A stretch of DNA of 64,000 bases from Lachnospiraceae bacterium (GCA_051877755.1 JBJEJE010000003.1:21460-85459); one strand, 5' to 3'. Positions 1-38,908 are shown, counted from the first letter of the stretch. Translations and numbers: made by a program. Notes: generated by a model from the sequence alone, not told the origin.

Positions 1-1
1 T

Positions 2-1426: not shown

Positions 1427-1472
1427 CGTATAGAAAAGAACAGGAACGGTTATAGTATAATTGGTGATGTAT

Positions 1473-2816: not shown

Positions 2817-2828
2817 GAGGTATATAGA

Positions 2829-3299: not shown

Positions 3300-3384
3300 G
3301 AAAGTAAATCTACTATTATTGGATAACTATATATTGTAAGGTGTTTTATAATAAACGGAGTAAAAGAAAAATTGGGAGAAATAT

Positions 3385-4107: not shown

Positions 4108-4153
4108 AATATATTTTAAATTATTTATAGAATATATTTTATGATAGAAAGAT

Positions 4154-4215
4154 AAAAAGTACGCAAATTTGCAATAACATTAGAAATGTTAGTCAGGCAA
4201 ATTTGTGTACTTTTT
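4154..4215. terminator. Bidirectional intrinsic terminator between convergent rsmG and the exonuclease gene
   Basis: AAAAAGTACGCAAATTTGC (4154-4172) pairs with GGCAAATTTGTGTACTTTTT (4196-4215). A-run and T-run flanks give a T-tract on both strands. Confidence 0.65.
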
Positions 4216-4216
4216 A

Positions 4217-5173
4217 TTAGGATGCATTTTTCTTTTGGTGTCGTTTTTCTTGTCGTTTTAGTCTTAATTCATTCTGTCGTTTCTTGATCTGTTCATATTC
4301 ATTTTTGGTAATCTTTTCAACAGTTTTAATTGCAAATACATGTCCATCGTTTGTAGATTTAAATCTTATTTTTCCACAAATCAGTCCATGTGTCCAACAT
4401 TTACCAACACAGATTTGTGTGGTGGAATTGTTAACAAACCATCTGATTTTTTTCTTGAGTTTACGGTTGCATTTGTGACAGCGTAGAGTAGAAATATTCT
4501 TATCATCCATGGCTTCTTTTTTGTTATTGAAAGTACGGGTGATATATTCACTGTAGTTCATGTGCTGAGAAGTGATTTCTTCTTCTTCACAGGTTGGATA
4601 GTGATAGTAATCAATACTATACATATCAGAAAGTCTTTTTCGATTCATTTCCTGAAATACTTTTGCGGTATAATATGCATCATTTTTTGCACAGTGAAAT
4701 GGTTCATTAATTGGAATATGCAGATCCGTAACTGCCTTTTCCAGACTTGGCATTTTACTTTTATCTCCCAAGTGATTGATTGCATATATTTCCTGGAGAT
4801 TATAAAATTTCAGAGGAAACGGAAAAGTGTTAAGATAGTAAAAATCCATATTTTGCTGCAGGTATGTCAGATCAAGAGGTCCCCATGTACAAAATATATA
4901 ATCTTCACCACACCATTTTTTAAATTCACGAAAAACAACATCAAATGGACGTCCGGTACGAAGAAGTTTTTCATCATAATTTAGTAATTCACGGATTGCT
5001 GCCTGTAGCCGTCGATAAACTCTTGGTTTGATAATACTTCCGTAATGGTCGATAATATTAAATTTTTGATCAAGTTTCGTAGCACCAATTTCAATTACTT
5101 CAAATGGCAGCTTTGCATTTGATGTACTTGAAGAACCCTGGTTCCACTCCAAATCCATTACAATATAATTCAT
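4217..5173 (-). CDS. DEDDh-type 3'-5' exonuclease (DnaQ/KapD-like) with a Cys-rich basic C-terminal extension
   Basis: Exo motifs are MDLEWN (DxE), CTWGPLD and HCAKNDAYYT (H-x4-D). The C-terminus has CHKCN...CVGKCWTHGLCG and a Lys/Arg tail. Start is moved to ATG 5173 (GAAGGA RBS 6 nt upstream) because the longer track ORF would overlap the upstream gene. Confidence 0.75.
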   Translation of the reverse strand: MNYIVMDLEWNQGSSSTSNAKLPFEVIEIGATKLDQKFNIIDHYGSIIKPRVYRRLQAAIRELLNYDEKLLRTGRPFDVVFREFKKWCGEDYIFCTWGPLDLTYLQQNMDFYYLNTFPFPLKFYNLQEIYAINHLGDKSKMPSLEKAVTDLHIPINEPFHCAKNDAYYTAKVFQEMNRKRLSDMYSIDYYHYPTCEEEEITSQHMNYSEYITRTFNNKKEAMDDKNISTLRCHKCNRKLKKKIRWFVNNSTTQICVGKCWTHGLICGKIRFKSTNDGHVFAIKTVEKITKNEYEQIKKRQNELRLKRQEKRHQKKNAS

Positions 5174-5213
5174 ATATATCCTTCTAAATGTATATTTGTA
5201 TTTGAGTGTTGTA

Positions 5214-5786
5214 TTAGTTTGCACGCATTCTTCTTACGTTGTCTGTGTTATCATTATAATATGTATCAAGTGTTTTGTTGATTTCTTCTAATACTTCTAA
5301 TGTCTCTTTCGATGCAGTGGAAGTATTACCATTTAACTGAACAAGAAGTTTGGAAATACGGTCAGAACTATTAAGTGTCTTGTTACTGCTTTCCTGTGTC
5401 TTTTTGATCAAAATCTTTGTACAGAGTTTCTGTTGTTCAATTAGTTCATCATTCAATCTCTGGTTTTCCTGTTTTAACTGTTCAAGCTGTTTTAAAAGTG
5501 CGTCGTTCTGTTTGATGTTGGTAGATTCTTCCCGTTTGGCAACGGAATAGATACCCTTTTCTACTTTCACAAGCTCGGTCTGTTTATCCATAGAAGCTTC
5601 AGAAATCTCGTCTACTTTCTTAACGATACTGTCCACAAGAAAATAAGTATCTGCTAAGGCTATTAAACCAAACACAATGATTAATTCTATCATTTGTGGC
5701 ATATTTAATATTAAATAAAGTAACACCAGAATAGAAGCCACAAAACCAACGGCACTGAATGTTAAATTAGATTTTTTGATCTTCAT
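5214..5786 (-). CDS. Hypothetical membrane protein with two N-terminal TM helices and a coiled-coil tail
   Basis: 190 aa. Hydrophobic segments are FSAVGFVASILVLLYLIL and LIIVFGLIALADTYFLV, followed by a heptad-rich Q/E/L/K region. No family was recognised. Confidence 0.5.
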   Translation of the reverse strand: MKIKKSNLTFSAVGFVASILVLLYLILNMPQMIELIIVFGLIALADTYFLVDSIVKKVDEISEASMDKQTELVKVEKGIYSVAKREESTNIKQNDALLKQLEQLKQENQRLNDELIEQQKLCTKILIKKTQESSNKTLNSSDRISKLLVQLNGNTSTASKETLEVLEEINKTLDTYYNDNTDNVRRMRAN

Positions 5787-5845
5787 AAAATAACCCCCAT
5801 TACTGTAAGTGATTCTTGAAATAGTAGTATTCTATATATGAGTAA

Positions 5846-5917
5846 TGCACCCGGCGGGAATCGAACCCACAATTATTCTTTAGGAGAGAATTGTTATATC
5901 CATTTAACTACGGGTAC
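5846..5917 (-). tRNA. tRNA-Arg (anticodon CCT)
   Basis: The minus-strand read is GTACCCG-TA-GTTAAATGGATATAAC-A-ATTCT-CTCCTAA-AGAAT-AATT-GTGGG-TTCGATT-CCCGC-CGGGTGC-A. It has a 7-bp acceptor, 4-bp D stem, 5-bp anticodon stem with a CT-CCT-AA loop, and a GTTCGATTCC T-loop. CCA is not encoded. Confidence 0.85.
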
Positions 5918-5948
5918 AGATAATAAGAACAAATGGTTGAGGAATATG

Positions 5949-6833
5949 TCACATAAAATGAACCTGTCCCTGCAACCAGATAATTCCTTTAAATCTTCTT
6001 CCAATCCGTGGTTCACCTTCAAGATCCAGGGAATTGATTGCCACGTTGATGGTAAGATCATTGCATACCACAGTTAGATTATACACCAATTCACCGGAAA
6101 ATTCATTAGTAATTTGTTCTATTTTTGTAATAATTCCTAAAATGGAATAGTGTTCGTTATCAATACCATATGGCATAAAGTATGTTTCAATAACAGTGAA
6201 TAAATCTTCATCTTTAATCCGCTTGGAAATAAGAGAGTAGGTATCCATATCGTCTAAAGTTAAATTTTCCAAAGCATCCATATCACCGGACTTTGCTTTA
6301 GCTATAAGATTACGGCGTTCCTTATTACTGATGGGCTGTTTCTCGTAGGGATAGGAGATGTATTCTAAATGAACACCATAAAGAATTCTTCCATTTAATG
6401 ATAAAGCACCAAACTTTACTTTCTTTGGAATTTTGTAAAAGTCATTTAACCAGGTACTTCTTACATAATCGACAATATTTTGCAGAGCATAAATGAGAGT
6501 AATCCCTAGATTGTAATCATCTGAAACTCCGGAATAGGCCTCCTTGTCTGTGTGTCCTTCAATCTGGATATCCGGTTGTGTCGTAGTATGGGAGCCTATA
6601 CAATAAGGAAAAGAATGATCTACCATGATGGTACCTTCTTTATCACTTTCTGCAATGATTGCAAGACCAAGACCGCCTCCTAAATCTCTGTTTATCTGAA
6701 TTAATTTGGTATCTGCTCCGATTTCAATTTCTCTTCTGTTTGTGGAATCATTTAATGCAGCGGTTATCAGTGTATTCTGTTCTATTTTATTTTTGAGTTT
6801 GCTAAAACCGATAGCGCGTAAATAACTATGCAT
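5949..6833 (-). CDS. DUF3881-like protein
   Basis: 294 aa. The N-terminus MHSYLRAIGFS matches my recollection of the DUF3881 family signature. No catalytic motif was recognised. Confidence 0.55.
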   Translation of the reverse strand: MHSYLRAIGFSKLKNKIEQNTLITAALNDSTNRREIEIGADTKLIQINRDLGGGLGLAIIAESDKEGTIMVDHSFPYCIGSHTTTQPDIQIEGHTDKEAYSGVSDDYNLGITLIYALQNIVDYVRSTWLNDFYKIPKKVKFGALSLNGRILYGVHLEYISYPYEKQPISNKERRNLIAKAKSGDMDALENLTLDDMDTYSLISKRIKDEDLFTVIETYFMPYGIDNEHYSILGIITKIEQITNEFSGELVYNLTVVCNDLTINVAINSLDLEGEPRIGRRFKGIIWLQGQVHFM

Positions 6834-6845
6834 TTTATACTCCTT

Positions 6846-7409
6846 TTAATAACTGATTTCTGGTTTTCTTTCTTCTCTTTCTTTTGCTGCTTCTTCTGCA
6901 CCTTCTTTGCCTATGGCAACATTGAGTGCCAGTCGCTCTTCTTCTGATAAGATATAATAGGATTCTTCATTGGTTACTTCCTTACAATAAGTAAAGCATC
7001 CTTCACGGCTATGCATGGAGGTAATAATGATACCATCGTGATTTTCTGTAAGTAGTGCCAGGGAAAAACTGAGTTTGCCTGACATTTCCTTGAAGGCATC
7101 ATATTTTACAAGACCAATTTTACAAAAGGTAGTAAGAAATTTATCGTTAATGATTTCAATGTCTTTGTTCTGTTTTTTTTCATTTTTTACAACCTGACGA
7201 ATTTCAGAAAATCTTTTTATAATAATTTCTTCTAAATTCGCAGCATCTTTTCCGGTAGTGAAACGTGTAAGACGCTTGTTTAATTTATTATATTTGGAAA
7301 TAATTGTAAATATCCATATAAATTGAAATATTACAACAACAATTAATATAAGTACTACTAAATCAATACTTATTCCAATTGAATCAAATATATCTGCTCC
7401 CATTGCCAA
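6846..7409 (-). CDS. DUF4446-like membrane protein (commonly follows parB in Firmicutes)
   Basis: 187 aa with a single N-terminal TM helix (VVLILIVVVIFQFIWIFTII). It lies directly downstream of parB on the same strand. Confidence 0.55.
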   Translation of the reverse strand: MAMGADIFDSIGISIDLVVLILIVVVIFQFIWIFTIISKYNKLNKRLTRFTTGKDAANLEEIIIKRFSEIRQVVKNEKKQNKDIEIINDKFLTTFCKIGLVKYDAFKEMSGKLSFSLALLTENHDGIIITSMHSREGCFTYCKEVTNEESYYILSEEERLALNVAIGKEGAEEAAKEREERKPEISY

Positions 7410-7485
7410 CCCTCTTTATTTCTTTCTCATCTGTTTTGAATGAATAACTTTATTACTTTTGTGTTTTCTTCTTTACAAATAAGTT

Positions 7486-8424
7486 TTATGATTGAATTGA
7501 ATATATCATTTCCATGATGTGCTCTAATTCATCTTTTGAATAATATTCAATCTCAATTTTTCCCTTTTCATTATTCTTTGCTTTAACTGTTGTCTTTGCT
7601 CCAAGTTTATATTTGAAATTTTCTTCCAGTTCTCTGTAGAGAAAAGATAAATCCTCCGTCGTAGCCGCAGCTTCTGGCTCTTTTTTAGGATTATTCAAAT
7701 CATTGACAATTTTCTTTACAAGCTTTTCTGTTTCTCTGACAGATAATCGTTCATCAAAAACTTTACAAGCTGTTTCATATTGTAATTCTTTATCCTCAAT
7801 TGGAAGAAGTGCTCTTGCATGTCCATTGGATAATTTTTCGTCAATGACCATCTCTTGTACTGCTTCTGTCAGTTTTAACAAACGTAGTATGTTAGTAATA
7901 TTACTTCTACTTTTGGAAACCCGTTCTGCCACATCATCCTGTTTTAAGTGAAATTCTTCTATTAATTTTTTATAAGCCTGGGCTTCTTCAATTGGATTTA
8001 AGTCTTCTCTTTGAATGTTTTCAATCAGACCAATCTCTAATATTTGCTGATCGGTATACTCTTTCACCACAACAGGTACTTCCTTTAAACCTGCTTTCAT
8101 GGCTGCTCTCCAACGTCTTTCGCCAGATACCAGAAGATAGTAATTATTTCGTTTTGTAACAACAAGTGGTTCAATTACACCATGCTGGGAAATGGAGTCT
8201 GCTAATTCCTGAAGAGCGTCCTCATTGAATTGCTTTCTCGGCTGATCTTTGTTGATTTCAATATCTTTTATTTTCAGCGTCATTTCCTTAGGTACTTCTT
8301 TGACCACTTCTTTAATGATTTCTTTTGGCTCATCTGATTTGCTTGATGTTCTATTTTTTCTAGTCTGAGCTGTATTAACTCCTAACATGGTATCCAGACC
8401 ATTACCTAATCCTTTTTTTGGCAT
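7486..8424 (-). CDS. parB: Chromosome partitioning protein ParB/Spo0J
   Basis: The ParB box is LVVSGERRWRAAMKAGL, with GLIENIQREDLNPIEEA and an HTH (QDDVAERVSKSRSNITNILRLLKL). Confidence 0.93.
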   Translation of the reverse strand: MPKKGLGNGLDTMLGVNTAQTRKNRTSSKSDEPKEIIKEVVKEVPKEMTLKIKDIEINKDQPRKQFNEDALQELADSISQHGVIEPLVVTKRNNYYLLVSGERRWRAAMKAGLKEVPVVVKEYTDQQILEIGLIENIQREDLNPIEEAQAYKKLIEEFHLKQDDVAERVSKSRSNITNILRLLKLTEAVQEMVIDEKLSNGHARALLPIEDKELQYETACKVFDERLSVRETEKLVKKIVNDLNNPKKEPEAAATTEDLSFLYRELEENFKYKLGAKTTVKAKNNEKGKIEIEYYSKDELEHIMEMIYSIQS

Positions 8425-8440
8425 TTTAATTTCCTCCTAA

Positions 8441-8456
8441 TGTTTCATGTGAAACA
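8441..8456. promoter_or_regulatory. parS-like centromere site TGTTTCATGTGAAACA
   Basis: 15 of 16 positions match the Firmicute parS consensus TGTTNCACGTGAAACA (central CACGTG is CATGTG here). It lies in the parA-parB intergenic region and is embedded in a 22-bp block identical to the copy at 9443-9464. Confidence 0.8.
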
Positions 8457-8547
8457 TTTTTAAAATGAAAATAGCACTCATATAGTTTTCAACGAATATA
8501 TATGCCTGCAAGCAGTCAATATATTCTTGTGAAAACTGCATTCATGC

Positions 8548-9315
8548 TTATACGTTTATGTTTGTGATGACTTCATCAGCTAGTAATCGATAACTTTCTG
8601 CACCAGCACTTCTGGAATCATATGTTATAATTGGCATTCCGTGACTAGGTGCTTCAGCTAAACGTACATTTCTTGGGATAATTGTCTTATATACATTTTG
8701 ATTGAGATTTTCTTTTACATTTTCAACAACTTGTAAAGATAAGTTTGTACGGGAGTCGTACATAGTAAAAACAACACCCTCAATCTTTAAATCTTTATTT
8801 AATTTCTGCTGAATTAATTCAATCGTATATATCAACTGGGAAAGTCCATCCAAAGCAAAAAACTCACATTGAATTGGAACAAGAACAGTATTTGCAGCTG
8901 TCATGGAATTGATTGTGAGCATTCCTAAAGCAGGCGGACAGTCAATAATTACATAATCAAATTTATCCTGGATTTTTCGTAATTGATTCTTGATAATATA
9001 TTGCATATCCGGTTCTCCAATAAATTCGACTTCAGCACCAGCTAAATATCGATTGGAAGGTAATATATTTAATCCCGGTATTACATTAATTAACATAGCT
9101 TCACCTATGTTACAGTTCTCACACATAACATCATAAATGGTATATTCTAAGTCATCTTTGTTAATACCAAATCCTGTTGTCAAATGTCCCTGTGGATCCA
9201 TGTCTACTGCTAAAGTTTTGAAACCTTTCTCAGCAAGGCAGGCAGCTAAGTTAATAGAAGTTGTTGTTTTACCAACTCCACCTTTCTGATTTGCAATTGC
9301 AATAATTCTTCCCAT
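8548..9315 (-). CDS. parA: Chromosome partitioning ATPase ParA/Soj
   Basis: The deviant Walker A is [34 protein letters not shown] and the 255 aa length also fit. Confidence 0.93.
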
Positions 9316-15678: not shown

Positions 15679-16143
15679 ATGAATAAGAAGGACATCGAGT
15701 TTAAAATCATGGAACGGCGTCCGATTTTCTGTAAAAACTGTGGGGGAAAGCTGTTTTACCAGAGTGGAGGTTTATATCGCTGTGAGGATTGTGGCGAAGA
15801 AGAACTGGATGATTTTGGAAAAATAAAACAATATCTGGAGGAACATGGTCCGTCTGCCGCTACATTTATTTCAGAGGGAACGGGGGTATCCCTGGAGATT
15901 ATCAATCTTTTTCTGAAAAATGGAAGGTTGGAGATTCCGGAGGGCAGTAATTTCTATATCAAATGTGAACGATGTGGATGTTCTCTGCGGTTTGGACGAT
16001 ATTGTTATGGCTGCACAAAAGAACTGGCAGGACAGCTTAAGGGTGCCATGTTTGAGCAGATGGGAGAAAAACCAAAGTCAGTACAGGAAAAAGAAAAGGG
16101 AAAAATGCATTTTCTGGATAATGCAGGAAAGAAGAAAAAATAA
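15679..16143 (+). CDS. Zinc-ribbon/HTH protein resembling the YvyF (flagellar-region) family
   Basis: Paired CxxC motifs occur at both ends (CKNCGG...CEDCG and CERCG...CYGC) around a helix-turn-helix-like core. The layout matches my recollection of B. subtilis YvyF. GAGGGTGG RBS is present. Confidence 0.45.
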   Translation: MNKKDIEFKIMERRPIFCKNCGGKLFYQSGGLYRCEDCGEEELDDFGKIKQYLEEHGPSAATFISEGTGVSLEIINLFLKNGRLEIPEGSNFYIKCERCGCSLRFGRYCYGCTKELAGQLKGAMFEQMGEKPKSVQEKEKGKMHFLDNAGKKKK

Positions 16144-16172
16144 AAAGAAATCCCTGTGAAGCACGGATAAGA

Positions 16173-16215
16173 GGACAGTTTTGCCCACCAAACAGCAGGA
16201 ATATTTTGGTAGAAT
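16173..16215 (+). promoter_or_regulatory. Promoter/operator module copy 1 (GGACAGTTTTGCCCACCAAA, then 17 nt, then TGGTAGAAT) upstream of LRR surface protein 1
   Basis: The inverted repeat GGACA-N4-TGCCC plus ACCAAA occupies the -35 position of an extended -10 promoter. The same module appears at 20931-20972 (minus strand) and 21029-21071. Confidence 0.6.
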
Positions 16216-16232
16216 ACAAAAGTAAAATATTC

Positions 16233-16261
16233 TTGATAGAATGGAATATTTTTACTATAAT
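16233..16261 (+). promoter_or_regulatory. Sigma-A-type promoter TTGATA-17-TATAAT
   Basis: TTGATA 16233-16238, a 17-nt spacer, then TATAAT 16256-16261. It lies ~55 nt upstream of ATG 16314. Confidence 0.5.
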
Positions 16262-16313
16262 TATATCAAGTTCATTCAGGAAGAACTTAGAAAAACAATA
16301 GGAGGAGTTTGTT

Positions 16314-19300
16314 ATGAAGAAATGGAAGCAAAAAAATGTTGCAGGTTTTCTTGCAATCTGCATGATACTTTCTTTGTTTACCGGTATGCCGGTAAATGCG
16401 TCGCAAGAAGATGGCCTTGACGAGGAACCGCCAGAAATTGTGAATGAAAATGGCCTGAAAGTGACTGTCGGACTAGATTTTGTAGATATTATAGACGAGA
16501 CTACGGGTGAATCGACAGGAAAACAGGAATTATTGACAACAGAAGAGGGAAGTGTAGTTATTCCTGCATATAAGAATGACGATGGAGTTCTTGTAAAACA
16601 TGAATATGCAGAATGGGAGAGGTGGACTTCCTTCTATGGAGAGGATCTTTGGCTGGATTATGTAACAGAAGATGGGATAACAACTCACGTAACCTATGCT
16701 AATATAACCGTTACCTCACCATCAGGAAATGATGTAACAGAAGAAGTTGCAAGTCAACACGAGATAGACGACAGGGTGATCCGCTTCCAACCAACAGAAG
16801 CTGGAAGATATACCATAACCTATAATCTTGCTACTGCAGAAGTATCGGATAATTCTCTTACAATCAATGTAGGCTGTCCGGAAGTGGGATTCTATACCTA
16901 TCCGAAGGCAAATGCAGAGAATCTGCTAAAGGATGACTTGTTTGAATATTCCGATATTAATAAGACATTTTACACGATATTACAATGTGATGGAAGCACA
17001 ATTGCGTTAAGCGAGGAAGCTCCATTTAAAATAAAGGATTGGGATGTTAATCCGGATCCAGATACATACATAACAGACGAGACGGAAATCGCAGACTATA
17101 TAAAATATGAAGCGGTAGAGGAAGAAACAGGAATCTATAAGGTGACAGTGAACACAAATAAATATTTTGGCTTGGTAGTTACTGCTACCGTGGAAGAAGA
17201 TCAGGAAAATCCAACAAGGGACAGATGGATTAGTGTAGAGCCGAAGATGGAAGGTCTTGTCTTGAAAGATCAGATTGATTGGGATGAGGATACAGGAACA
17301 CCTTCTGTTAATTTAGAGGCCGAATTTGCAAAAGAGACCTACCCGGAATTGTACGGTACTACACTGTACTTTGCATATGTAGAGAAAGAAGGTGCCGAAG
17401 GAGAACTCATAACAGCAGATAATGAATATATTTCCGTTTCTTATGACGGAAAGCCTGCTGGTAAGGATCTGGTAGAATACGGTACAAATGAGAACAATCC
17501 TGATTTAATTGATTTTACATTTTATGAGGTTGGAGATTATACAGTAACCTATGCAATCGGTGATATCTGCTCATCTGTTGTAATTCATGTGGGTTATCCA
17601 GTTGCAGCCTTTTATACAACGGAAGAAATGAGTGCAGAGGGCTTCCTAAGAGATGGAGAATTTCCTTATAATAATGAGAACCGTACAGTATATTTTATTG
17701 TAAATGATAATCCGGATAAAACCATTACGGATACAGAAATATCTATAAATGACTGGAACGAAGAAGATATTGCTATAGAAACAATAGAAGAAAATAAGAA
17801 ATATAAGATTACGGTAAAAGACGATGTGCGAGCAAGCTTTGGATTGACGGCACAGTATTACTGCAAATGGGACTGGGAAAAAGTGCCGAAGGAGGATCGT
17901 AGGGATATTTATATGTATACCGACGAAGGTGCTATATATACAGATGGCATCGCACATTTAGGATATGCCGGATGTTATATTTCAGAGTATGAATTTGAAA
18001 CATGTAATGGTATTAACTATAACAGTGGCAATTCACAGTACTGGGTTCATGCTGATACCATTCAGGGTGTTATTGATAAGCTTGCAGCCGTTTCGGAGGG
18101 AGAAGAAGTATTATTCAATCCGGATGATCCGGATGACACTGCAACAGGCATTGTAAATACCGGATATATACATATTAACGTAAGTCACTTTGGAGATATA
18201 CAGCTGGAACCACAGTATATTTCTTCCTCCGGTAATATGAAGGGAATCCAGTTTGAAGCAGGAAACGATCATTACTTTACCATTCCGGATGAAAATCATT
18301 CTTTAACGGAAGATGGCATATACATTGAGGATAAATTGTATATTGTAACAAAAGAAGGAAAGGTAGAATTTCCAGCTTTAGCAGATGTTGATATTATCAG
18401 CCGTTATTGCGATGAATTGTATACGGTGGTAAAACATACAGAAGATGGGAAGTTGTATTATTCACTGGGTGAAAAGATTGATATAAGATTGGATTCCAAA
18501 AGTGAAAATACAATTCCGGAAGCGGACAATCAGAAAATGGCTTTGGGAGAACTGCTGGACAGTCTTGAATATAATGATGCATTTACGAAGTATTTTGATG
18601 TATATTGGATGCCTGCATTTCAATTCCCGGAATTACACGTTAATATGTATAGTGATATGAAATTTGCAGGCAATATGTCAGAACTTTATATTGGATTTAA
18701 AGATGGAGAGAATAACAAAGCAAGTATATTCTCAAGAACTGAAAATGGTTTAGAACGTGTAACAACGTATTCTAAGGATGATATAAATAAAGATTCTGAA
18801 ACCATAGACGTTGTATACGATGATATATATGCAGAGGGCGGAACAGGATATTCTGTTTCTAATGTAAAGGTTCATTTATATGAAATTGCCAGCACTTCAC
18901 AAAGTGATGAAAGCAGTACTTATGTAACAGAAGCCGGCGATAAGGTAACATTAGCGGTTGCTCCGGAACCATATTCATTAAAGGAGTTAAAATCTGAGCA
19001 GATAAAAGCCATTGAAATCGGAGAAAAATTAACCGTTTCCATTAAGGCAGATGAAATCGATCAAGCAACTGCCACAGATTCTGAAAAGAATGCCATTGAA
19101 GAGATCTGTAAGACAGTAGAAATGAACCTCGGTAAAACTGCCGTCGTTGGCGCATTTTTAGACTTATCTGTTTCAGCAAAGGTGGATACTGTAGAAGAGG
19201 AAACCAAGATTACGGAAACAAAAGCACCGATGACCGTTACAGTTCCATTAACAAAGGAATTGCAAGGGAGAAAGAATTATGCTATCGTCCGTTATCATGA

Positions 19301-20261
19301 GGGTATCGGTGGACATGTAGATGTATTAACTGCTAAATTATTAGAAGATGGAAAAACTTTATCATTTGATACCGATAGATTCTCTGTTTATGCCATTGTT
19401 TATGAAAAAGAGGATTTGGATCTGAGTAAAGTAGCATGGAACTATAAGGATGCATTTACTTATGATGGTTCTGCAAAGACAGTAGAATTAACAGGATTAC
19501 CAAAGGGGCTTACGGCAACCTATACCGGCAATACAGCAACAGAGCCGGGAACCTATACCGCACAGGTAACATTTAGCTATGATGATACTGTATATAACGC
19601 ACCGGATGTGTCAATGTTCAGCAGTTTGCAATGGCAGATTGTTAAAACAGAAACACCAGCTGCATCAACTGCACCAACTGCTCCAGCAGACACCACTAAG
19701 GCCGGTGATACAGCAACAGTTGACGGTAATAATTATACCGTTACCAGTGTGGCAGATAACCAGAAGACCGTTACTTATGTAAGTGGTGATAAGAAAGCCA
19801 CAAATGTTACTGTACCGGATACCGTTACCATTAGCGGAACCACATATCAGGTAACAGCCATTGCGGATAATGCATTTAAGAATTGTACCGCATTAAAGAA
19901 AGTTACCATTCCAAAGAATGTGACAACAATCGGTAAGAATGCATTTTACGGATGTAAGAAATTGACTACGGTTAAGTATAGCGGAACGGCTGTGACAAAG
20001 ATTGACCAGGGAGCTTTCCGGAAGTGTACCAGCCTGAAGTCCGTAACCATTCCAAAGTCTGTAACAGAGATTGGAAAGGATGCTTTCCGGGATTGTACCA
20101 AGTTAAGCAAGATTACCTTTAAGGGAACTGCAATTAAGAAGATTGGTAAGAACGCATTTAAGAACATTGCAAAGAAACCAACCATCAAAGTGCCTGCAAA
20201 GAAAAAGACTGCTTACAAGAAGCTGCTTAAGAGTGCAGGTTATACAAAGACAGTAAAATAA
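16314..20261 (+). CDS. Large secreted surface protein with N-terminal repeated modules, an MBG-like domain and C-terminal BspA-type leucine-rich repeats
   Basis: The signal peptide is MKKWKQKNVAGFLAICMILSLFTGMPVNAS. The internal module ending INVGCPEVGFYT / IHVGYPVAAFYT is duplicated. DLSKVAWNYKDAFTYDGSAKTVELTGLP...GTYTAQV is present. The C-terminus has ~23-aa repeats (VTIPKNVTTIGKNAFYGCKKLTTV). No LPXTG motif was seen. Confidence 0.8.
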   Translation: MKKWKQKNVAGFLAICMILSLFTGMPVNASQEDGLDEEPPEIVNENGLKVTVGLDFVDIIDETTGESTGKQELLTTEEGSVVIPAYKNDDGVLVKHEYAEWERWTSFYGEDLWLDYVTEDGITTHVTYANITVTSPSGNDVTEEVASQHEIDDRVIRFQPTEAGRYTITYNLATAEVSDNSLTINVGCPEVGFYTYPKANAENLLKDDLFEYSDINKTFYTILQCDGSTIALSEEAPFKIKDWDVNPDPDTYITDETEIADYIKYEAVEEETGIYKVTVNTNKYFGLVVTATVEEDQENPTRDRWISVEPKMEGLVLKDQIDWDEDTGTPSVNLEAEFAKETYPELYGTTLYFAYVEKEGAEGELITADNEYISVSYDGKPAGKDLVEYGTNENNPDLIDFTFYEVGDYTVTYAIGDICSSVVIHVGYPVAAFYTTEEMSAEGFLRDGEFPYNNENRTVYFIVNDNPDKTITDTEISINDWNEEDIAIETIEENKKYKITVKDDVRASFGLTAQYYCKWDWEKVPKEDRRDIYMYTDEGAIYTDGIAHLGYAGCYISEYEFETCNGINYNSGNSQYWVHADTIQGVIDKLAAVSEGEEVLFNPDDPDDTATGIVNTGYIHINVSHFGDIQLEPQYISSSGNMKGIQFEAGNDHYFTIPDENHSLTEDGIYIEDKLYIVTKEGKVEFPALADVDIISRYCDELYTVVKHTEDGKLYYSLGEKIDIRLDSKSENTIPEADNQKMALGELLDSLEYNDAFTKYFDVYWMPAFQFPELHVNMYSDMKFAGNMSELYIGFKDGENNKASIFSRTENGLERVTTYSKDDINKDSETIDVVYDDIYAEGGTGYSVSNVKVHLYEIASTSQSDESSTYVTEAGDKVTLAVAPEPYSLKELKSEQIKAIEIGEKLTVSIKADEIDQATATDSEKNAIEEICKTVEMNLGKTAVVGAFLDLSVSAKVDTVEEETKITETKAPMTVTVPLTKELQGRKNYAIVRYHEGIGGHVDVLTAKLLEDGKTLSFDTDRFSVYAIVYEKEDLDLSKVAWNYKDAFTYDGSAKTVELTGLPKGLTATYTGNTATEPGTYTAQVTFSYDDTVYNAPDVSMFSSLQWQIVKTETPAASTAPTAPADTTKAGDTATVDGNNYTVTSVADNQKTVTYVSGDKKATNVTVPDTVTISGTTYQVTAIADNAFKNCTALKKVTIPKNVTTIGKNAFYGCKKLTTVKYSGTAVTKIDQGAFRKCTSLKSVTIPKSVTEIGKDAFRDCTKLSKITFKGTAIKKIGKNAFKNIAKKPTIKVPAKKKTAYKKLLKSAGYTKTVK

Positions 20262-20285
20262 TAACAAAATAGCAGATATATAACA

Positions 20286-20327
20286 GGGAGTGCCGTGATA
20301 AACATATCGCGGCACTCCCCTTTTATT
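20286..20327 (+). terminator. Intrinsic terminator after LRR protein 1
   Basis: GGGAGTGCCG (20286-20295) pairs with CGGCACTCCC (20310-20319), followed by C-TTTTATT. Confidence 0.8.
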
Positions 20328-20392
20328 GAAGTTTCCTTGTTTACTAAGTGTTGGAAAGAAATTGGGCATCATAGGGAAAAACAGAGAGTATA

Positions 20393-20803
20393 TTAACTAA
20401 GGGAATCTTCCCCAATATCTTTCAACAATTCGTTACATTCTTCCTCGGATAATTGGTGCTGGATGCAGTATAAAACAGCGGCATCGAAACGGTTTCGAGG
20501 ATAAAGAATGGGGCGGTTGCCGGCAGTTAAAAGTTTCTGGGTCTCATCCACAGAAAGCTGGCACAGAAAGGCAATGCGGATTAGAAAATTCCTGGTTGGT
20601 TTTCTCCTGCCTTTGAGAATCTGATAAGTGTAAGAGCGTTCCATGTTAAGCTTAAGAATCACATCTTTTGCCTGTAATCCATGAGATTCTAATAATGTAT
20701 TCATATATTCAGAAATATTGACATCTTTAAAAGAATCTTCTTTTTTGAATTCTTCTATATCTAAATTTTCTAGTAATTTCAATAATTCCTCAGTTGATTT
20801 CAT
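20393..20803 (-). CDS. XRE-family helix-turn-helix transcriptional regulator
   Basis: 136 aa. The HTH core is LQAKDVILKLNMERSYTYQILKGRRKPTRNFLIRIAFLCQL. It is transcribed divergently from LRR protein 2. Confidence 0.8.
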   Translation of the reverse strand: MKSTEELLKLLENLDIEEFKKEDSFKDVNISEYMNTLLESHGLQAKDVILKLNMERSYTYQILKGRRKPTRNFLIRIAFLCQLSVDETQKLLTAGNRPILYPRNRFDAAVLYCIQHQLSEEECNELLKDIGEDSLS

Positions 20804-20930
20804 GGTCCCACCATCCTGTATCTGTAATGAGATTGATTATCATTGATTATTGCCGGATTAAGGTTATATTATTCCGGATAAGCGAAGAAAACTTCACTTA
20901 TATGTATAATGGGTAATATATATCAATAAT

Positions 20931-20972
20931 ATTCTATCATAGTGAAATTATTTTTGGTGGGCAAATTTGCCC
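20931..20972 (-). promoter_or_regulatory. Promoter/operator module copy 2 (minus strand: GGGCAAATTTGCCCACCAAA, then 16 nt, then TGATAGAAT) driving the XRE gene
   Basis: The perfect palindrome GGGCAAATTTGCCC is followed by ACCAAA. The extended -10 TGATAGAAT lies at 20939-20931 read on the minus strand. This leaves a ~120-nt leader to ATG 20803. Confidence 0.6.
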
Positions 20973-21028
20973 ATTTTTGTTTTAATTTACAAAAATTGGA
21001 GAGAAATATGGGAAAAAATGATAAAAGT

Positions 21029-21071
21029 GGGCAGTTATGTCCACCAAAAAAGGCTACTAATTTGATAAAAT
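21029..21071 (+). promoter_or_regulatory. Promoter/operator module copy 3 (GGGCAGTTATGTCCACCAAA, then 17 nt, then TGATAAAAT) upstream of LRR surface protein 2
   Basis: It has the same architecture and spacing as copies 1 and 2. It is 56 bp from copy 2 in divergent orientation. Confidence 0.6.
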
Positions 21072-21125
21072 CGCAATATGACATTGTCATTATTAGTGCA
21101 ATGAAAATATGAAGGAGGATATTGT

Positions 21126-24100
21126 ATGAGGAAGGAAAGATTAAAAAAGCGAGGTATAGCATTAAGCCTTGCCTGTGTAATGATCTTAAGTATGTTTACA
21201 GGAATTAAGGCAAATGCTGGTTGGTGGGGAAATCCAGAAGAGAATCCAGAGACAGCTAAGCAATATGGATTATGGTTTGGAAGTTGCTGGCTTGAGGAAG
21301 ATGAAAATAGTGAAAACTGCGGAAAATGGATGATGGATACGGATGAAGATCCTGTAGTGTGTGATCCTACTAGTGTAGATGTTGGGGACATGAGAGAGTA
21401 TGCAGATATGGATCTTCGAGAAGTTGACGGAACCTGGAAGAATGCGTATTTCTTCAAGTATGTCGATTATGAAATAAGTGGAGAAGTTGAGGAGTCAAGT
21501 ATTAACATAGGAAATATTGATCAGATTACGGAAGAGACGAACCTTTATATAACTTATCTGGGCACAGAACTTGAAAACGATGCGGAAAATGAAGGGAATA
21601 CGGACCCAAGATGGGCAATTGCTAATGTGGTGGAGGATTCTTCCGCATCTATTACACCTATTGAGGAATCAGAATCAGAAGGTCTTTTCGAGTTACATAT
21701 TGAGAAACCTGGATATTACATTATTTCCAAAGGGCAATTAGAAATAGCTGATAATCACTTTATTGACAGTGATGCTGCTATTGGTTTGCATGTATATAAA
21801 TATACCGGGCTTGCAGCAAGGGAAGCTTATTATGATGGTGATTCACAACAGTGGAATTATGACCCTGAAGACCCAAATTATGGCAATGAAATTTGGGGTC
21901 GGGATTTAGGAGATAGTGCCTTTGCGATTACTGATGTGGTGGAAGGAGAGGAAGGAAGTATTTCCTTTGATGAGCTTGAACTTACCTATTATGGTGAGAT
22001 TGGGGCAGATCCACGTTTTCCTTATGAAACCACAGATGAAGCTGAACAACCTATTGAAAAATATGAAGAGAAGGTGGATACCAAGGCAACCATTGAAGTA
22101 TATAATAAAGATGAAAGCCTTATTCTTTTCAAACCGGATACGCCGGGTAAGTATCTGATTTCAAAGAAAGGTATAACAGATGAAGTAACCGATGAAAATC
22201 GTGAAATTCGTGAGAATGCAATTCTAATTGACGTTGACTCGAATAGACCGGGATTTTTCAACACTACAAAATATTTAAGAGAAAATCTGCTTTTCAATGT
22301 ATGGGCAGATTGTTATGACACCACATATGTGGAAGGACAAGCAGATTCATCGTTTTATTACCATGCACCTGTTGTTGGAGAAGAAGAAGATGCCTTTGAA
22401 AAGCTGATTGTTAATTATGGTGATAATACCACTGAAATAGGGAAAGATGAAATTATTTCTAACGGCTTTTCCGACGTATTATCCATGGAGCCGGTTTCTG
22501 GAGCAAATGGATGGTACAAGATTACTATCAATTTGAATGATTATATGCATGTAGAGTTTGTAGATTCATTTGGGGGATGCGCAAATCTGGATGTTCGTTA
22601 TTATGGAGCTAACGAGATTGAACTACGTGAAGTGGACAGAGAGAAAACAGCATACAGCTATATGGATGATCCATATTTGGTAACCACATCCTTTACAATG
22701 GAGGCATATGGCGTAGAGAATGGTGAACTTAAGAAAATAACAAGTGAAGATAAACTGGCAGCCTTTAATGTATATGAAAGAATTGAACTGGGTGATATTT
22801 GTTGGGAGGATGAAAACGGGGAACCCCAACATATGGAAGGTTTTTCTCATAATGAAAATGATGAACTCATATATGAGAACGACCCTGATGATGTAAGATT
22901 TATCTTTGGTGAGGATGAGGATGGTAATGAAATCCTGGAATATGTGTACAAAAAAGTTGACAGTGATAATGCTTCCATAGAAGTAATAGAAGAAGGTCTT
23001 AAAGTACAGGTAAATGCTATTGGCGACTATCTTTTGACATCGGAGAATGGAGGATGGTATGAATTTAGAGCGGATCTTCCTAGTATTGGAGTGTACAATA
23101 CTCCAGAACGTAAGGAATACAACCGTGATTATATTGACAATTTGGAGAAAAATATTAAGGTATACCAGGGTCGTGACTGTAGTGATACATATTATGTTTT
23201 AGCCTGGGTTGACAAAGATCACTATGATAAAAATGGAGAACCTGTTACAGGTAATGTTAACGAATGGGATAATTTAAGTCCATGGGCTGCAGATCCTGAT
23301 ACAATTGATATTCAGGCAGGTGAAAATGTTAACTTTAAAACACTTGAAGATGTCGATTTTGATTCGATTGAGGGATTTGTGAAAGTAGATACAGAGAATC
23401 CGGTAATATATGAGGATGAGGATAATCGTGCAAAAATTGGATATCCAATTCAATTAACCAATGACATTGATAGAGATTTCTCTATTATTATGTCGGCTGA
23501 GCGGAATAATACTGAGTTAAAAAGACGTTATGATGCATTGGCTGTGGATTACGAACCACTTAAGGAACTTAAAGTTAAGAATGCTCCAACAAAGGTAGAA
23601 TACATTGAGGGAGAAACCTTTGATCCTAGCGGTTTAGTTGTTGAGGCTGTATATGAGGATGGAACGAGCTTTACATTGTCAAAGGATGAGTATAAGCTTA
23701 CAGTTTCTGATAAGCTTTCAACAAATGACAAAGTAGTAACCATTTCATATCTTGAAAAGACAGTGAATCAGAACATTACAGTAAAAGCAAAACAGAAGGT
23801 TGATTTGTCTAAAGCTGCATGGAATTATAAGGAAGCATTTATTGCGGATGGAACAGAGAAGACGGTTGAGATTACCGGATTACCTGCTGATGCAGTAAAT
23901 ATTGAGTATAAGAATAACAAGGCAAGTGCAGCAGGTACATATACTGCAGAAGCAGTTATTACATTAAAGGATGCAAACGCATATGAGTTTTCCGGTGAGA
24001 TTCCTGCATCACTCAAATCTCTTACATGGGAGATTAAGGCACCGGTGACAACCCCTGCTGATCCAACAACAGTTGGTGAGACAACAGTTGTAGAGAATGC

Positions 24101-24713
24101 TACATTTAAGGTATTATCTACTGAGGAAGGCAAAAAGGCTGTGACCTATGTAAGTGGGGACAAGAATGCTGCAAAAGTAACGATTCCGGCAACTGTAACA
24201 GTAAATGGTAATACATATGCTGTAACAGAAATTGCGGACAATGCCTTCTCCGGAAACAAGAAATTAACTACAGTTAGCATTCCGGACAGTGTAACAAAGA
24301 TTGGAAAGAATGCATTTAAGAATTGTGCAAAGTTAAAGAGTGTTACAATCCCGGCAGAGGTAACTGAGATTGGCAGCGATGCATTTTCAGGTTGTAAAAA
24401 GCTAACCAAAGTAACGATTGGAAAGAATGTAACTACCATCGGTGACAAGGCATTTTATAATTGTAGTGCACTTACCAAGGTTACTATTCCTGCCAATGTA
24501 AGTAAGATTGGAAAACAGACATTTGCAGGATGTAAGAACTTAAAGTCCATCACCATTAAGACCACCAAGCTGACCAGCAAGAATGTGGGAAGCAATGCAT
24601 TTAAGGGTATTAATGCAAAGGCTACCATCAAGGTGCCAAAGAGCAAATTGTCAAGTTACAAGAAGCTCTTAAAGTCAAAGGGTGTAAGCTCTAAGGCAAA
24701 AATCACAAAATAG
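21126..24713 (+). CDS. Large secreted surface protein with N-terminal repeated modules, a Big-like domain, an MBG-like domain and C-terminal BspA-type leucine-rich repeats
   Basis: A signal peptide is present. An Ig-like segment is KVKNAPTKVEYIEGETFDPSGLVVEAVYEDGTSF. DLSKAAWNYKEAFIADGTEKTVEITGLP...GTYTAEAV parallels the protein at 16314. LRR units include VTIPAEVTEIGSDAFSGCKKLTKV. The tail KKLLKSKG is shared with the paralog. Confidence 0.8.
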   Translation: MRKERLKKRGIALSLACVMILSMFTGIKANAGWWGNPEENPETAKQYGLWFGSCWLEEDENSENCGKWMMDTDEDPVVCDPTSVDVGDMREYADMDLREVDGTWKNAYFFKYVDYEISGEVEESSINIGNIDQITEETNLYITYLGTELENDAENEGNTDPRWAIANVVEDSSASITPIEESESEGLFELHIEKPGYYIISKGQLEIADNHFIDSDAAIGLHVYKYTGLAAREAYYDGDSQQWNYDPEDPNYGNEIWGRDLGDSAFAITDVVEGEEGSISFDELELTYYGEIGADPRFPYETTDEAEQPIEKYEEKVDTKATIEVYNKDESLILFKPDTPGKYLISKKGITDEVTDENREIRENAILIDVDSNRPGFFNTTKYLRENLLFNVWADCYDTTYVEGQADSSFYYHAPVVGEEEDAFEKLIVNYGDNTTEIGKDEIISNGFSDVLSMEPVSGANGWYKITINLNDYMHVEFVDSFGGCANLDVRYYGANEIELREVDREKTAYSYMDDPYLVTTSFTMEAYGVENGELKKITSEDKLAAFNVYERIELGDICWEDENGEPQHMEGFSHNENDELIYENDPDDVRFIFGEDEDGNEILEYVYKKVDSDNASIEVIEEGLKVQVNAIGDYLLTSENGGWYEFRADLPSIGVYNTPERKEYNRDYIDNLEKNIKVYQGRDCSDTYYVLAWVDKDHYDKNGEPVTGNVNEWDNLSPWAADPDTIDIQAGENVNFKTLEDVDFDSIEGFVKVDTENPVIYEDEDNRAKIGYPIQLTNDIDRDFSIIMSAERNNTELKRRYDALAVDYEPLKELKVKNAPTKVEYIEGETFDPSGLVVEAVYEDGTSFTLSKDEYKLTVSDKLSTNDKVVTISYLEKTVNQNITVKAKQKVDLSKAAWNYKEAFIADGTEKTVEITGLPADAVNIEYKNNKASAAGTYTAEAVITLKDANAYEFSGEIPASLKSLTWEIKAPVTTPADPTTVGETTVVENATFKVLSTEEGKKAVTYVSGDKNAAKVTIPATVTVNGNTYAVTEIADNAFSGNKKLTTVSIPDSVTKIGKNAFKNCAKLKSVTIPAEVTEIGSDAFSGCKKLTKVTIGKNVTTIGDKAFYNCSALTKVTIPANVSKIGKQTFAGCKNLKSITIKTTKLTSKNVGSNAFKGINAKATIKVPKSKLSSYKKLLKSKGVSSKAKITK

Positions 24714-24740: not shown

Positions 24741-24786
24741 AAGCTGCCGCTTCATGATGTATCTATCGTGAAGTGGCAGCTTTTTT
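24741..24786. terminator. Bidirectional terminator between LRR protein 2 and the Ser/Thr kinase gene
   Basis: AAGCTGCCGCTTCA...TGAAGTGGCAGCTT is followed by TTTTTT, with an A-rich stretch on the left side. Confidence 0.75.
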
Positions 24787-26371
24787 ACTGTTCTGAAGAA
24801 GCAGCATTTTCCTGCTCGTCAACCCAATCAATTGTCATCCGGATGTTATTCATTATATCGGCCAGAGCACCCTGATATTCTACACGGGACTTCTCGCCAG
24901 AGGCTGTGGCATAGATATACAGACAGCTTTCTGTATTTATCACACTTGGAGTAAGATAGTTATAGATATTTGAATAAATGGCATCCGCATAATGCTCATA
25001 GGAGCCCAGCTTCTGTTTTAAAATCTGGTCCCGGTAAGCGAGATTGTCCCGTATTTGTACAATGGGAGCCCGGAAATCTTCTCCGGAAGAAGGAGTAACA
25101 CCATAATAGTCAGTACCTGTTACTTGACTGACAGCTTCATCTTCATAGAGGGCTTTTACTAATTTCTCACAGTTTGCCGCCATAGAAGAAGAGTCACTGT
25201 TATAACAGTCAAGGATGATCTGGTTCACCAAATCCTGAAATTCTAGAAAATCACATTCCATGGCACCAGACTGCTCAAACAAGGAAACATTCTCAGAGGA
25301 TACAGCAGCCTTGTTGGTTTCAGTAGAATCGGTTTCCATTTGGGAGGTATCATTTTCTGTGGAAGTAGTATTTTCTATGGAAGTGGTATTTTCTGCAGCA
25401 TTTCCGGATTCTTTATCTGAATTCAAGGAATCGGATAATGTAATATTATCCTGTTTTTCATAAAAGGAGCCACCTATAAATCCAAGTCCTGTTCCTAAAG
25501 CCAGTATCAGAAGCCCCAACCCAATCTGATAAGCATAGGATTTAGAAAAATTCAGATGGCTCTGATAATGCTTTAGGGAGCGGATGAGCTGCCCTACATC
25601 CGAATATCGCTTATCCGGTGCGAAATCCGTGCAGCGGGAAATCATTTTTTGAAATGGTTTTGCAATGGAAGAGGATTTCAAATCCTTGATTTCTGTACTT
25701 CCATAGGTTAAATATAACAAGGTTTTTCCCAGGGCATAGATATCCGTCCGCACATCACTCTGGGAAAATCCAAACTGCTCCGGCGCGGCATGGGAAGGGG
25801 TACCAACTAACATGGTATCCCTGGATTTATCTGGGGTAAAGACTCTTGCAGTATCAAAATCAATCAGATAAAGAACACCGGTGCCTTTTTGAATAATGAA
25901 ATTCTCCGGCTTAATGTCCCTGTGGATAATGGGTGGATTTTGTTTATGTAACAGCTGGATTATTTCACAGATTTCCAGCATGTAGCCTGTGATTTCCGTA
26001 TCAGACAGATAGAGTCGGCGTTCAAAATAGTCCGCTAAAGAAATGCCTTCAATATAGTCTCTTAACAGATAACAGGTTTCCCCCTCTTCCCAGCAATCCA
26101 TGCATTCCGGAACTGCTAAATTCTGTATTGTCCCCAGTTGCTTTGAGATTTGATATTCCTGTTTGATCAAAGGAATCTGTCTGTCGGTTCCCCGTTTCAG
26201 GATGAACTGGCTTTCCTTTGCATCTGATAATAGATAAATCTCTTTATTGGAAGATGTCTTTAGACAGTCGCGAAGCTGATAGGAGTCAGCCAGACGGTCA
26301 GGCAGCTGAAAGGAGTGTAATTGTTCATTATAGGAATTCAAAAAAGAATTGGAAGGTTTAACAGAATCCAT
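24785..26371 (-). CDS. Membrane Ser/Thr protein kinase (Hanks-type) with an uncharacterised extracellular C-terminal domain
   Basis: The catalytic loop is HRDIKPENF. DFDTAR replaces DFG, and an APE-like HAAPEQ is present. A TM segment (IGLGLLILALGTGLGFIGG) is followed by ~230 aa outside. Start is set at ATG 26371 (AAAGGAGA RBS); the longer track ORF overlaps the trmB region. Confidence 0.82.
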   Translation of the reverse strand: MDSVKPSNSFLNSYNEQLHSFQLPDRLADSYQLRDCLKTSSNKEIYLLSDAKESQFILKRGTDRQIPLIKQEYQISKQLGTIQNLAVPECMDCWEEGETCYLLRDYIEGISLADYFERRLYLSDTEITGYMLEICEIIQLLHKQNPPIIHRDIKPENFIIQKGTGVLYLIDFDTARVFTPDKSRDTMLVGTPSHAAPEQFGFSQSDVRTDIYALGKTLLYLTYGSTEIKDLKSSSIAKPFQKMISRCTDFAPDKRYSDVGQLIRSLKHYQSHLNFSKSYAYQIGLGLLILALGTGLGFIGGSFYEKQDNITLSDSLNSDKESGNAAENTTSIENTTSTENDTSQMETDSTETNKAAVSSENVSLFEQSGAMECDFLEFQDLVNQIILDCYNSDSSSMAANCEKLVKALYEDEAVSQVTGTDYYGVTPSSGEDFRAPIVQIRDNLAYRDQILKQKLGSYEHYADAIYSNIYNYLTPSVINTESCLYIYATASGEKSRVEYQGALADIMNNIRMTIDWVDEQENAASSEQ

Positions 26372-34604: not shown

Positions 34605-34630
34605 ACCTGCAGGCAGAAAGAAGGTGGGGC

Positions 34631-38837: not shown

Positions 38838-38908
38838 AATACACTCTATTCTTTTTTAACTGGCAGTAAAGTATTGGCTGCAGCCGGGGAGAGCAAAATA
38901 GAAAGGAG

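Follow-up and report, generated by a model that had tools for sequence, protein, structure and literature searches.

An 18-bp palindrome shared by an XRE-type regulator gene and two leucine-rich-repeat protein genes in a Lachnospiraceae genome suggests a regulon coupled to a membrane Ser/Thr kinase

How are the genes for large BspA-type leucine-rich-repeat (LRR) proteins controlled in Lachnospiraceae? Lachnospiraceae are major members of the gut microbiota, and to our knowledge the control of these proteins in them is not understood. The question is raised here by a locus in a 64,000-nucleotide (nt) stretch of the genome of a Lachnospiraceae bacterium (GCA_051877755.1, JBJEJE010000003.1:21460-85459), called the window below. 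It contains two LRR genes, LRR1 and LRR2, and a gene for an XRE-type helix-turn-helix (HTH) regulator between them. The original prediction placed a 20-nt element with an inverted repeat in the position of the -35 hexamer at the promoters of all three genes. It proposed a small autoregulated regulon in which a dimeric factor, most simply the XRE protein, binds that element. The analysis presented here suggests that the module is a transcription-factor regulon coupled to eukaryotic-like Ser/Thr kinase (eSTK) signaling, a sensing circuit that has not been described. The site (18 bp) and the regulator of such a circuit are defined, as are two or three target promoters, and a membrane kinase is the candidate sensor.

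The 20-nt element occurs three times in the window, at the positions first reported (Table 1). With up to 3 mismatches allowed, these were exactly the matches found in 64 kb, and 100 dinucleotide-preserving shuffles contained none. The dyad GGRCA-N4-TGYCC by itself gave 3 matches in the window against 0.05 expected. The segment CCACCAAA by itself was not significant by count (3 versus 3.06 expected), and all three of its occurrences lie inside element copies. The inverted repeat GGGCA-N4-TGCCC of the original prediction is real, and it was drawn too short. The symmetric unit is an 18-bp palindrome, GTGGGCA-N4-TGCCCAC, followed by a promoter-proximal CA. In this 18-bp unit the right half-site takes in the CCAC of CCACCAAA as its outer part. 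The relaxed dyad GTGNGCA-N4-TGCNCAC, with up to 2 mismatches, returned the same three sites only. Sites 2 and 3 face away from each other across 56 bp, as predicted, and the gene calls bear out the three targets (the 1,315-aa LRR protein, the XRE protein, and the 1,195-aa LRR protein). When the three upstream regions were aligned, the element and the -10 box were the only shared parts.

Loci for comparison were gathered by look-ups of single XRE homologues and by scanning species-representative genomes (596 Gb) with a strict DNA pattern. Further loci came from a protein-guided scan of metagenome contigs (77 loci), and tblastn and site scans were run on all loci. Homologues of the XRE protein were many in Lachnospiraceae metagenome assemblies; nearly all were 136 aa long, with 62-92% identity. 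The comparison with relatives that the original prediction had called for covered about 17 Lachnospiraceae lineages, with regulators 41-100% identical. The palindrome precedes an LRR_5 gene in every lineage in which that upstream region was readable, and the XRE gene in about 16/17, the exception being locus L079. The genomic contexts of modules carrying the palindrome number four or more. Outside the window, lineages may have their two sites kilobases apart or a solitary site, and orientations vary. One lineage (L057 and L072) has GTGTGCA-type or GTCTGCA half-sites at both promoters.

The strict pattern, GGGCA-N5-GCCCACCAAA-N16/17-TANAAT, has 20 specified bases, for which about 2 chance matches are expected in 596 Gb under uniform base composition. 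It was found at 9 loci, and 9/9 were XRE/LRR modules, with 1-2 matches per genome. The element is specific to the XRE/LRR module and is not a dispersed repeat, so the objection that the original prediction had raised against itself fails. Other LRR_5 genes near the module in locus L095 were searched for the palindrome, and it was not found. As judged from these scans, the regulon appears to be confined to this locus.

Each copy of the element is phased to a -10 box. The distance from element to hexamer in the window is 17, 16, and 17 nt, which agrees with the predicted spacing when counted to the -10 hexamer, and 14, 13, and 14 nt to the TG-extended 9-mer. Taking the hexamer as -12 to -7, the palindrome is centered at -42.5 with a 17-nt spacer or -41.5 with a 16-nt spacer; these positions assume a transcription start ~7 nt after the -10 hexamer. 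The conserved block reaches upstream to about -51.

The same arrangement was seen in 34 distinct promoter-oriented sites collected from all loci. This set was partly selected, in that CACC (positions 14-17) and a TAnnnT hexamer at 16-18 nt were required; the unfiltered site list gives the same picture. Within the set the half-site core is nearly invariant, and C17 and A18 are conserved at 100% and 94%, respectively. Information content is 1.2-2.4 bits inside the element and about 0-0.3 bits in the flanking intergenic sequence. A TG-extended TAnAAT forms the -10 box, as in housekeeping sigma-A promoters. The TG stands at -15/-14 in 29/34 sites, and the spacer to the hexamer is 17 nt in 29/34 and 16 nt in 5/34. 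The hexamer at the -35 position (ACCAAA or ACCATC) agrees with TTGACA at only 1-2 of 6 positions, which upholds the claim that the element takes the place of a -35 hexamer. In this partly selected set, the promoters have the geometry expected of class-II activation, with a center near -41.5, no -35 hexamer, and fixed phasing to the -10 box.

Table 1. Positions in the window of the element copies, promoters, and genes of the module
Feature	Position	Strand	Description
Site 1	16173-16192 (20-nt copy); 16171..16192 (full unit)	+	GGACAGTTTTGCCCACCAAA; upstream of LRR1; GAGGACA-GTTT-TGCCCAC then CAAA; degenerate palindrome, left half-site with 2 mismatches to GTGGGCA
Extended -10 of palindrome-linked LRR1 promoter	16207..16215	+	TGGTAGAAT; hexamer TAGAAT at 16210-16215, 17 nt past element
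Second sigma-A-type promoter before LRR1	16233..16261	+	TTGATA-17-TATAAT; 11/12 consensus positions
LRR1	16314..20261	+	1,315 aa; signal peptide; basic C-terminal BspA-type LRR_5 domain; no LPXTG motif
Terminator-like hairpin after LRR1	20286..20319	+	
XRE-type HTH regulator	20393..20803	-	136 aa; low-confidence N-terminal segment 1-29 (with Thr4), HTH core, two C-terminal helices
Extended -10 of XRE promoter	20931..20939	-	TGATAGAAT; hexamer TAGAAT at 20936-20931, 16 nt past element
Site 2	20953-20972 (20-nt copy); 20953..20974 (full unit)	-	GGGCAAATTTGCCCACCAAA; upstream of XRE gene; ATGGGCA-AATT-TGCCCAC then CAAA; inner 14 bp GGGCAAATTTGCCC a perfect palindrome
Site 3	21029-21048 (20-nt copy); 21027..21048 (full unit)	+	GGGCAGTTATGTCCACCAAA; upstream of LRR2; GTGGGCA-GTTA-TGTCCAC then CAAA
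Extended -10 of LRR2 promoter	21063..21071	+	TGATAAAAT; hexamer TAAAAT at 21066-21071, 17 nt past element
LRR2	21126..24713	+	1,195 aa; signal peptide; Big_3 domain; basic C-terminal LRR_5 domain; no LPXTG motif
Predicted membrane Hanks-type Ser/Thr kinase	24785..26371	-	528 aa; start ATG at 26371; own promoter without palindrome

The XRE protein is predicted to have an XRE/Cro-C1-type HTH fold. Its AlphaFold2 model has a mean pLDDT (predicted local distance difference test score) of 86, with helices at residues 30-94. Foldseek aligned 64-70 residues to the cores of DdrO, C.Esp1396I, SinR, and ClgR (root mean square deviation 1.6-3 Å, probability 0.97-1.0, E > 0.1). The best structural matches of the HTH core were C.AhdI, C.Esp1396I, DdrO, ClgR, and SinR. 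The Pfam match to HTH_31 (E = 3e-5, 24.7 bits) is just under the 27-bit cut-off. Sequence and profile searches found no close solved relative, and no PDB sequence match was better than E = 0.01. The protein falls in no NCBIfam family. It has no match to a TPR domain, only two short helices after the HTH core. Membership in the RRNPP family was considered and rejected, given the 136-aa length and the missing TPR domain.

The XRE protein is probably the binder of the palindrome, on comparative grounds. Its recognition helix, M54-E-R-S-Y-x-Y-Q-I62, is invariant across the clade, and the half-site core is nearly so. It is the sole DNA-binding protein that always accompanies the site in the conserved modules compared. 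Deviations of the sites from the consensus fall mostly in one half-site and are mirrored in 3/35. The two-fold symmetry and the rarely mirrored changes fit a protein dimer and not a selected hairpin. Together with the conservation among lineages, the fixed spacing, and the specificity in 596 Gb, the invariant helix supports the predicted autoregulated regulon with an XRE dimer at the -35 position. A second, canonical XRE gene (HTH_3, E = 6.5e-16, 123 aa), with no relation to the palindrome, lies within 60441-61861 (-). It is preceded by a 350-aa open reading frame (ORF; 60809-61861) without a Pfam match, whose stop and the start of the XRE gene share 4 nt.

The original prediction missed a conserved partner of the module, a predicted membrane Hanks-type Ser/Thr kinase. 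Its gene adjoins LRR2 downstream on the opposite strand. It encodes an N-terminal catalytic domain (Pfam Pkinase, PF00069, E = 5e-27), one transmembrane segment, and an extracellular domain of ~200 aa. Across 14 lineages the kinase keeps the catalytic Lys and the motifs HRDIKPEN, AAPE, and DF[D/E] (or D[IVC]D), the last of which reads DFD in the window. The ectodomain differs among lineages and is sometimes itself an LRR domain. Where the sequence extends 5 kb or more to either side of the XRE gene, a kinase gene was present in 48/50 loci. Gene order varies. The genes may be divergent, the palindrome may precede an XRE-kinase pair (L012) or an LRR-kinase pair (L079), or the kinase may lie upstream of the XRE site. 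In L079 (7700-8000 and 8424-14260) the palindrome drives an LRR_5-kinase operon, in which the kinase ectodomain is an internalin-like LRR; the spacing to the best -10 candidate there is 2-3 nt longer.

A HipBA-like toxin-antitoxin or defense system was also considered for the regulator and kinase and was rejected. The kinase is a membrane Pkinase, and no HipA family appeared for it in the Pfam or NCBIfam results. PADLOC matches cover its catalytic domain only, and the XRE protein has none.

The regulator-kinase pair is found more widely than the palindrome. A profile search placed the XRE protein in a large family whose members are ~140 aa long; at E <= 1e-10 the profile matched 1001 clusters, formed at 50% identity. 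Among remote members on informative contigs, a Pkinase gene lies directly downstream in 4/4. The two genes overlap by 8-11 nt, or the kinase starts 20-60 nt downstream. The contigs retrieved for the proteins P0200 and P0260 were too short to show neighboring genes of use here. Neither an LRR_5 gene nor the palindrome was found at the loci of these four remote members, and the palindrome was not found in the upstream regions of the remote members L101 and L103. A GGACA-like hairpin in L103 proved to be the ligA terminator. Remote pairs without LRR_5 genes or the palindrome point to the regulator-kinase pair as the older association and the more widespread one. As far as sequence comparison can tell, the LRR genes would then be, with this palindrome, the output of one clade.

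Within the XRE family, Thr4 is 95% conserved in 123 representatives that are <=50% identical to each other, on par with residues of the HTH core. It sits in an otherwise variable N-terminal stretch of low pLDDT. eSTKs phosphorylate disordered N termini of DNA-binding-only regulators, as PknL does at Thr9 of Rv2175c and PknF at T2-S7 of EthR (PMC4601284). By analogy Thr4 is a plausible phospho-acceptor. That the kinase phosphorylates the XRE protein is put forward as a tentative proposal on the same analogy.

Two loci contain further genes beside such pairs. In L101 (2575-10991) the XRE member heads an apparent operon that forms a complete Ser/Thr phospho-signaling cluster. It is followed by genes for a kinase, a PrsW-FHA protein, an FHA protein, a 212-aa protein without a Pfam match, a PP2C phosphatase, a kinase-FHA protein, and a VWA-FHA protein. 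In L105 (1373-3645) a 139-aa gene overlaps the next gene, of 618 aa, 1.4 kb upstream of the XRE-kinase pair. Both lack a Pfam match, and they may be a diverged paralogous pair.

We propose the following circuit. An XRE dimer would bind each 18-bp palindrome at a sigma-A promoter in which the -10 box is TG-extended and the -35 hexamer is missing. It would thereby control its own gene and the neighboring genes for large signal-peptide LRR_5 proteins. The bound dimer would stand in for the missing -35 contact and recruit RNA polymerase (class-II-type activation). The membrane kinase would be the likely signal input. Its variable ectodomain would sense something outside the cell, and it would modify the regulator, possibly on the N-terminal Thr4 that is conserved family-wide. 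Taken as a whole, from dimer binding through class-II-type activation to kinase input, this reading of the sequence data is a reasonably probable one.

Activation is favored over repression by the phased site geometry at promoters without a -35 hexamer. A strictly phased dimer site at -41.5/-42.5 without a -35 box is the arrangement of a class-II activator. Such sites are known for CRP and PrfA at -41.5, for lambda cI at OR2 for PRM, and in ComR/Rgg boxes. By analogy with these, it is on balance somewhat likely that the XRE protein activates.

The rival that survives best has the XRE protein bind the same palindrome as a repressor. It would cover the -35 region of otherwise constitutive promoters with a TG-extended -10 box and so hold down both its own gene and the LRR genes, until the kinase or another signal relieved it. 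All of the evidence for binding applies to repression equally, and most characterized small XRE/Cro-type proteins are repressors, often of their own genes. Since promoters with a TG-extended -10 box need not have a -35 box to be active, repression is an equally open use of a site over -35; the TG extension is present at most of the collected sites, as given above. However, repressor operators usually drift in position among orthologous promoters, and here the 16/17-nt phasing is kept across diverged lineages. This phasing, the -41.5/-42.5 center, and the lack of a -35-like hexamer are hallmarks of class II. We regard repression as rather unlikely.

The habits of small XRE/Cro-type proteins and of TG-extended promoters are not the only points that weigh against activation of this regulon by an XRE dimer under kinase control. 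The selected columns and the spacer range in the collected sites are partly circular. The scan for a genome-wide regulon used the strict pattern only. The XRE promoter of L079, whose regulator is 47% identical, has no clear palindrome. With the left half-site of site 1 weakened and a consensus promoter downstream of it, much of LRR1 expression may be independent of the regulator in this genome. On the side of the kinase, no Gly-rich loop (GxGxxG) was recognizable in the motif comparison of the 14 lineages. Two loci of one lineage (L058 and L059) have no kinase gene within 8 kb and keep their palindromes.

A further alternative, raised in the original prediction, is that the element is the -35 of an alternative sigma factor that reads CCACCAAA. 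In a variant of it, a factor encoded elsewhere binds the element. Under either form the XRE gene would be merely a co-regulated passenger. The CCACCA segment is indeed the most invariant part of the element and lies asymmetrically on the promoter-proximal side, with the limit that CACC was itself a selection criterion. But the conserved 18-mer has two-fold symmetry and its far edge, at about -51, is well beyond the contacts of sigma region 4, and the -10 box is that of housekeeping sigma-A with a TG extension. No sigma gene is present in the 64-kb window or in any conserved module, and the XRE protein is the one DNA-binding protein always found with the site. The alternative is very unlikely.

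Least probable of all is a structural or mobile feature (a hairpin terminator, a dispersed repeat or MITE, or an invertible promoter flanked by inverted repeats), which is suggested by a terminator scan that flags the reverse orientation of sites 2 and 3 (a GC-rich stem, then a T run) and by the position of both sites inside a 47-nt imperfect inverted repeat, but is opposed by the confinement of the strict pattern to XRE/LRR modules in 596 Gb, by half-site changes that break pairing and are seldom compensated, by a sense-orientation stem that runs into CAAA and not a T run at a place where no gene ends, by the distant and variously oriented sites of other lineages, by promoters that point outward with no recombinase gene having turned up in the window, and by the absence of an Rfam match for the element.

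The inverted repeat just mentioned makes up the whole of the divergent XRE/LRR2 control region (20951-21050). Its arms are 70% complementary with 6 nt between them, and the mirror symmetry of the region reaches past both palindromes into A/T-rich flanks. A 34-aa ORF, MGKNDKSGQLCPPKKATNLIKSQYDIVIISAMKI, at 21008-21112 (+) begins in this region. It has a Shine-Dalgarno-like sequence (GGAGAG) and overlaps site 3 and the LRR2 -10 box. The ORF was rejected as an explanation of the element, as sites 1 and 2 have no counterpart, and it is probably fortuitous.

The two target genes encode BspA-type LRR proteins. Their LRR_5 matches have E values of 4e-31 and 1e-37, and both proteins begin with a signal-peptide-like sequence and have a strongly basic LRR_5 domain at the C terminus. 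The region before LRR1 has its ortholog in the single LRR-gene upstream region of L095, a locus whose XRE protein is 87% identical. Identity between the two is about 85% from the palindrome to the start codon; the site in L095 is GTGGACAGTTTTGCCCACCAA. The homology ends at the left edge of the palindrome, and the left half-site in the window is degraded to GAGGACA. The LRR and XRE genes of L095 are transcribed divergently, with 29 bp from the center of one palindrome to that of the other. In the window LRR1 lies beyond the far side of the XRE gene, and LRR2 is in the divergent position.

The original prediction also gave LRR1 dual control from a second promoter. This promoter is present in the window (Table 1). 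It is specific to the lineage, for L095 reads TTGAGG...TTACAC at its position; dual control of LRR1 would thus be a recent gain. LRR1 may have partly escaped the regulator. Upstream of LRR1, at 15679-16143 (+), lies a zinc-ribbon protein gene (154 aa). Its product is related to the "flagellar region protein" family TIGR03826/YvyF, with a match below the cut-off (E = 1.5e-25). The gene adjoins the XRE gene in L001 and L095 too, and in the window LRR1 is inserted between them.

The wider window contains other gene sets. Positions 1-9315 contain genes of a replication-origin type (mnmG/gidA, rsmG/gidB, parB, and parA), with DUF4446 and DUF3881, and a tRNA gene at 5846-5917 (-). The origin-type gene set indicates that the locus is chromosomal and probably close to oriC. 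A Tad/Flp-type pilus-like set is encoded at 34128-41654 (prepilin peptidase, TadZ-like protein, T2SSE ATPase, T2SSF, and DUF5702). The gene that follows, at 42004-43371, encodes a DUF6382-FHA protein. As readers of phospho-threonine, FHA domains could provide a link to Ser/Thr kinase signaling. A SAM riboswitch (Rfam RF00162, 63.6 bits) lies at 56238-56347 (+), upstream of an S-adenosylmethionine synthetase gene (56627-57814).

Bacterial Hanks kinases are usually described as pleiotropic, without dedicated partners (PMC4601284). A conserved and often translationally coupled kinase-regulator pair with a nearly invariant Thr would be a clear counter-example to that view. It would also give a tractable model for signaling from an eSTK to transcription. 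A broader form of the proposal, which the family-wide sequence comparison makes possible and which we hold more doubtful than phosphorylation of this regulator by its neighboring kinase, is that ~140-aa XRE proteins with an N-terminal Thr are dedicated outputs of membrane Hanks kinases across Clostridia, with phosphorylation of Thr4 switching on the LRR genes. If true, this would be a widespread two-gene system, two-component-like and built of a eukaryotic-like kinase and an XRE regulator. The Lachnospiraceae LRR genes would then respond to an extracellular cue, possibly derived from the host or the community.

Full-text searches of an incomplete literature collection gave no description of this regulator family, of its pairing with a Hanks kinase, or of the regulation of LRR_5 genes in Lachnospiraceae. 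The circuit resembles the RRNPP, HipBA, C-protein, and PrfA systems in part and falls outside all four families.

Lambda cI at OR2/PRM and the controller (C) proteins of restriction-modification systems are likewise XRE/Cro-fold dimers. They bind a palindrome by or over their own -35 position and are autoregulated. Their sites are centered near -42, and they activate by contacting sigma region 4. In contrast, sequence similarity to the protein described here is limited to the HTH core, and the locus has no phage or restriction-modification context. The targets here are LRR-protein genes, a Hanks-type kinase is the conserved partner, and no second, repressing operator is evident.

The outline of the circuit is that of PrfA and the internalins of Listeria, in which a palindrome controls LRR surface-protein genes along with the gene of the regulator itself. 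The PrfA box is a 14-bp palindrome at -41.5 with a poor -35 box, and it drives inlA, inlB, and prfA itself. However, PrfA is a Crp/Fnr-family protein that a small ligand activates. The regulator described here is 136 aa long and of the XRE type, its targets are BspA/LRR_5 genes, and its input is likely a membrane kinase.

Rgg, ComR, and PlcR of the RRNPP family share an XRE-type HTH and a palindromic box just upstream of the -10 box, at fixed spacing and without a -35 hexamer. These proteins are ~280-300 aa long and have a peptide-binding TPR domain, whereas the regulator here is 136 aa long, has no TPR domain, and has no evident signaling-peptide gene. In HipBA, too, a small XRE HTH gene adjoins a Ser/Thr kinase gene, and the HTH protein binds palindromes in its own promoter. 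The kinase here differs in being a Pkinase with a transmembrane segment and an ectodomain, and the regulon includes secreted LRR proteins.

The pairs PknL-Rv2175c, PknH-EmbR, and PknF-EthR of Mycobacterium are also made up of a membrane eSTK and a small regulator. In them a phosphorylated Thr or Ser in a disordered N terminus changes the binding of the regulator to DNA (PMC4601284). In the module described here, Thr4 is in an N terminus of low model confidence, and the kinase gene is adjacent. The mycobacterial regulators have winged HTH, SARP, and TetR folds. Here the regulator has a predicted XRE fold, the pairing is family-wide and often translationally coupled, and the phosphorylation is predicted.

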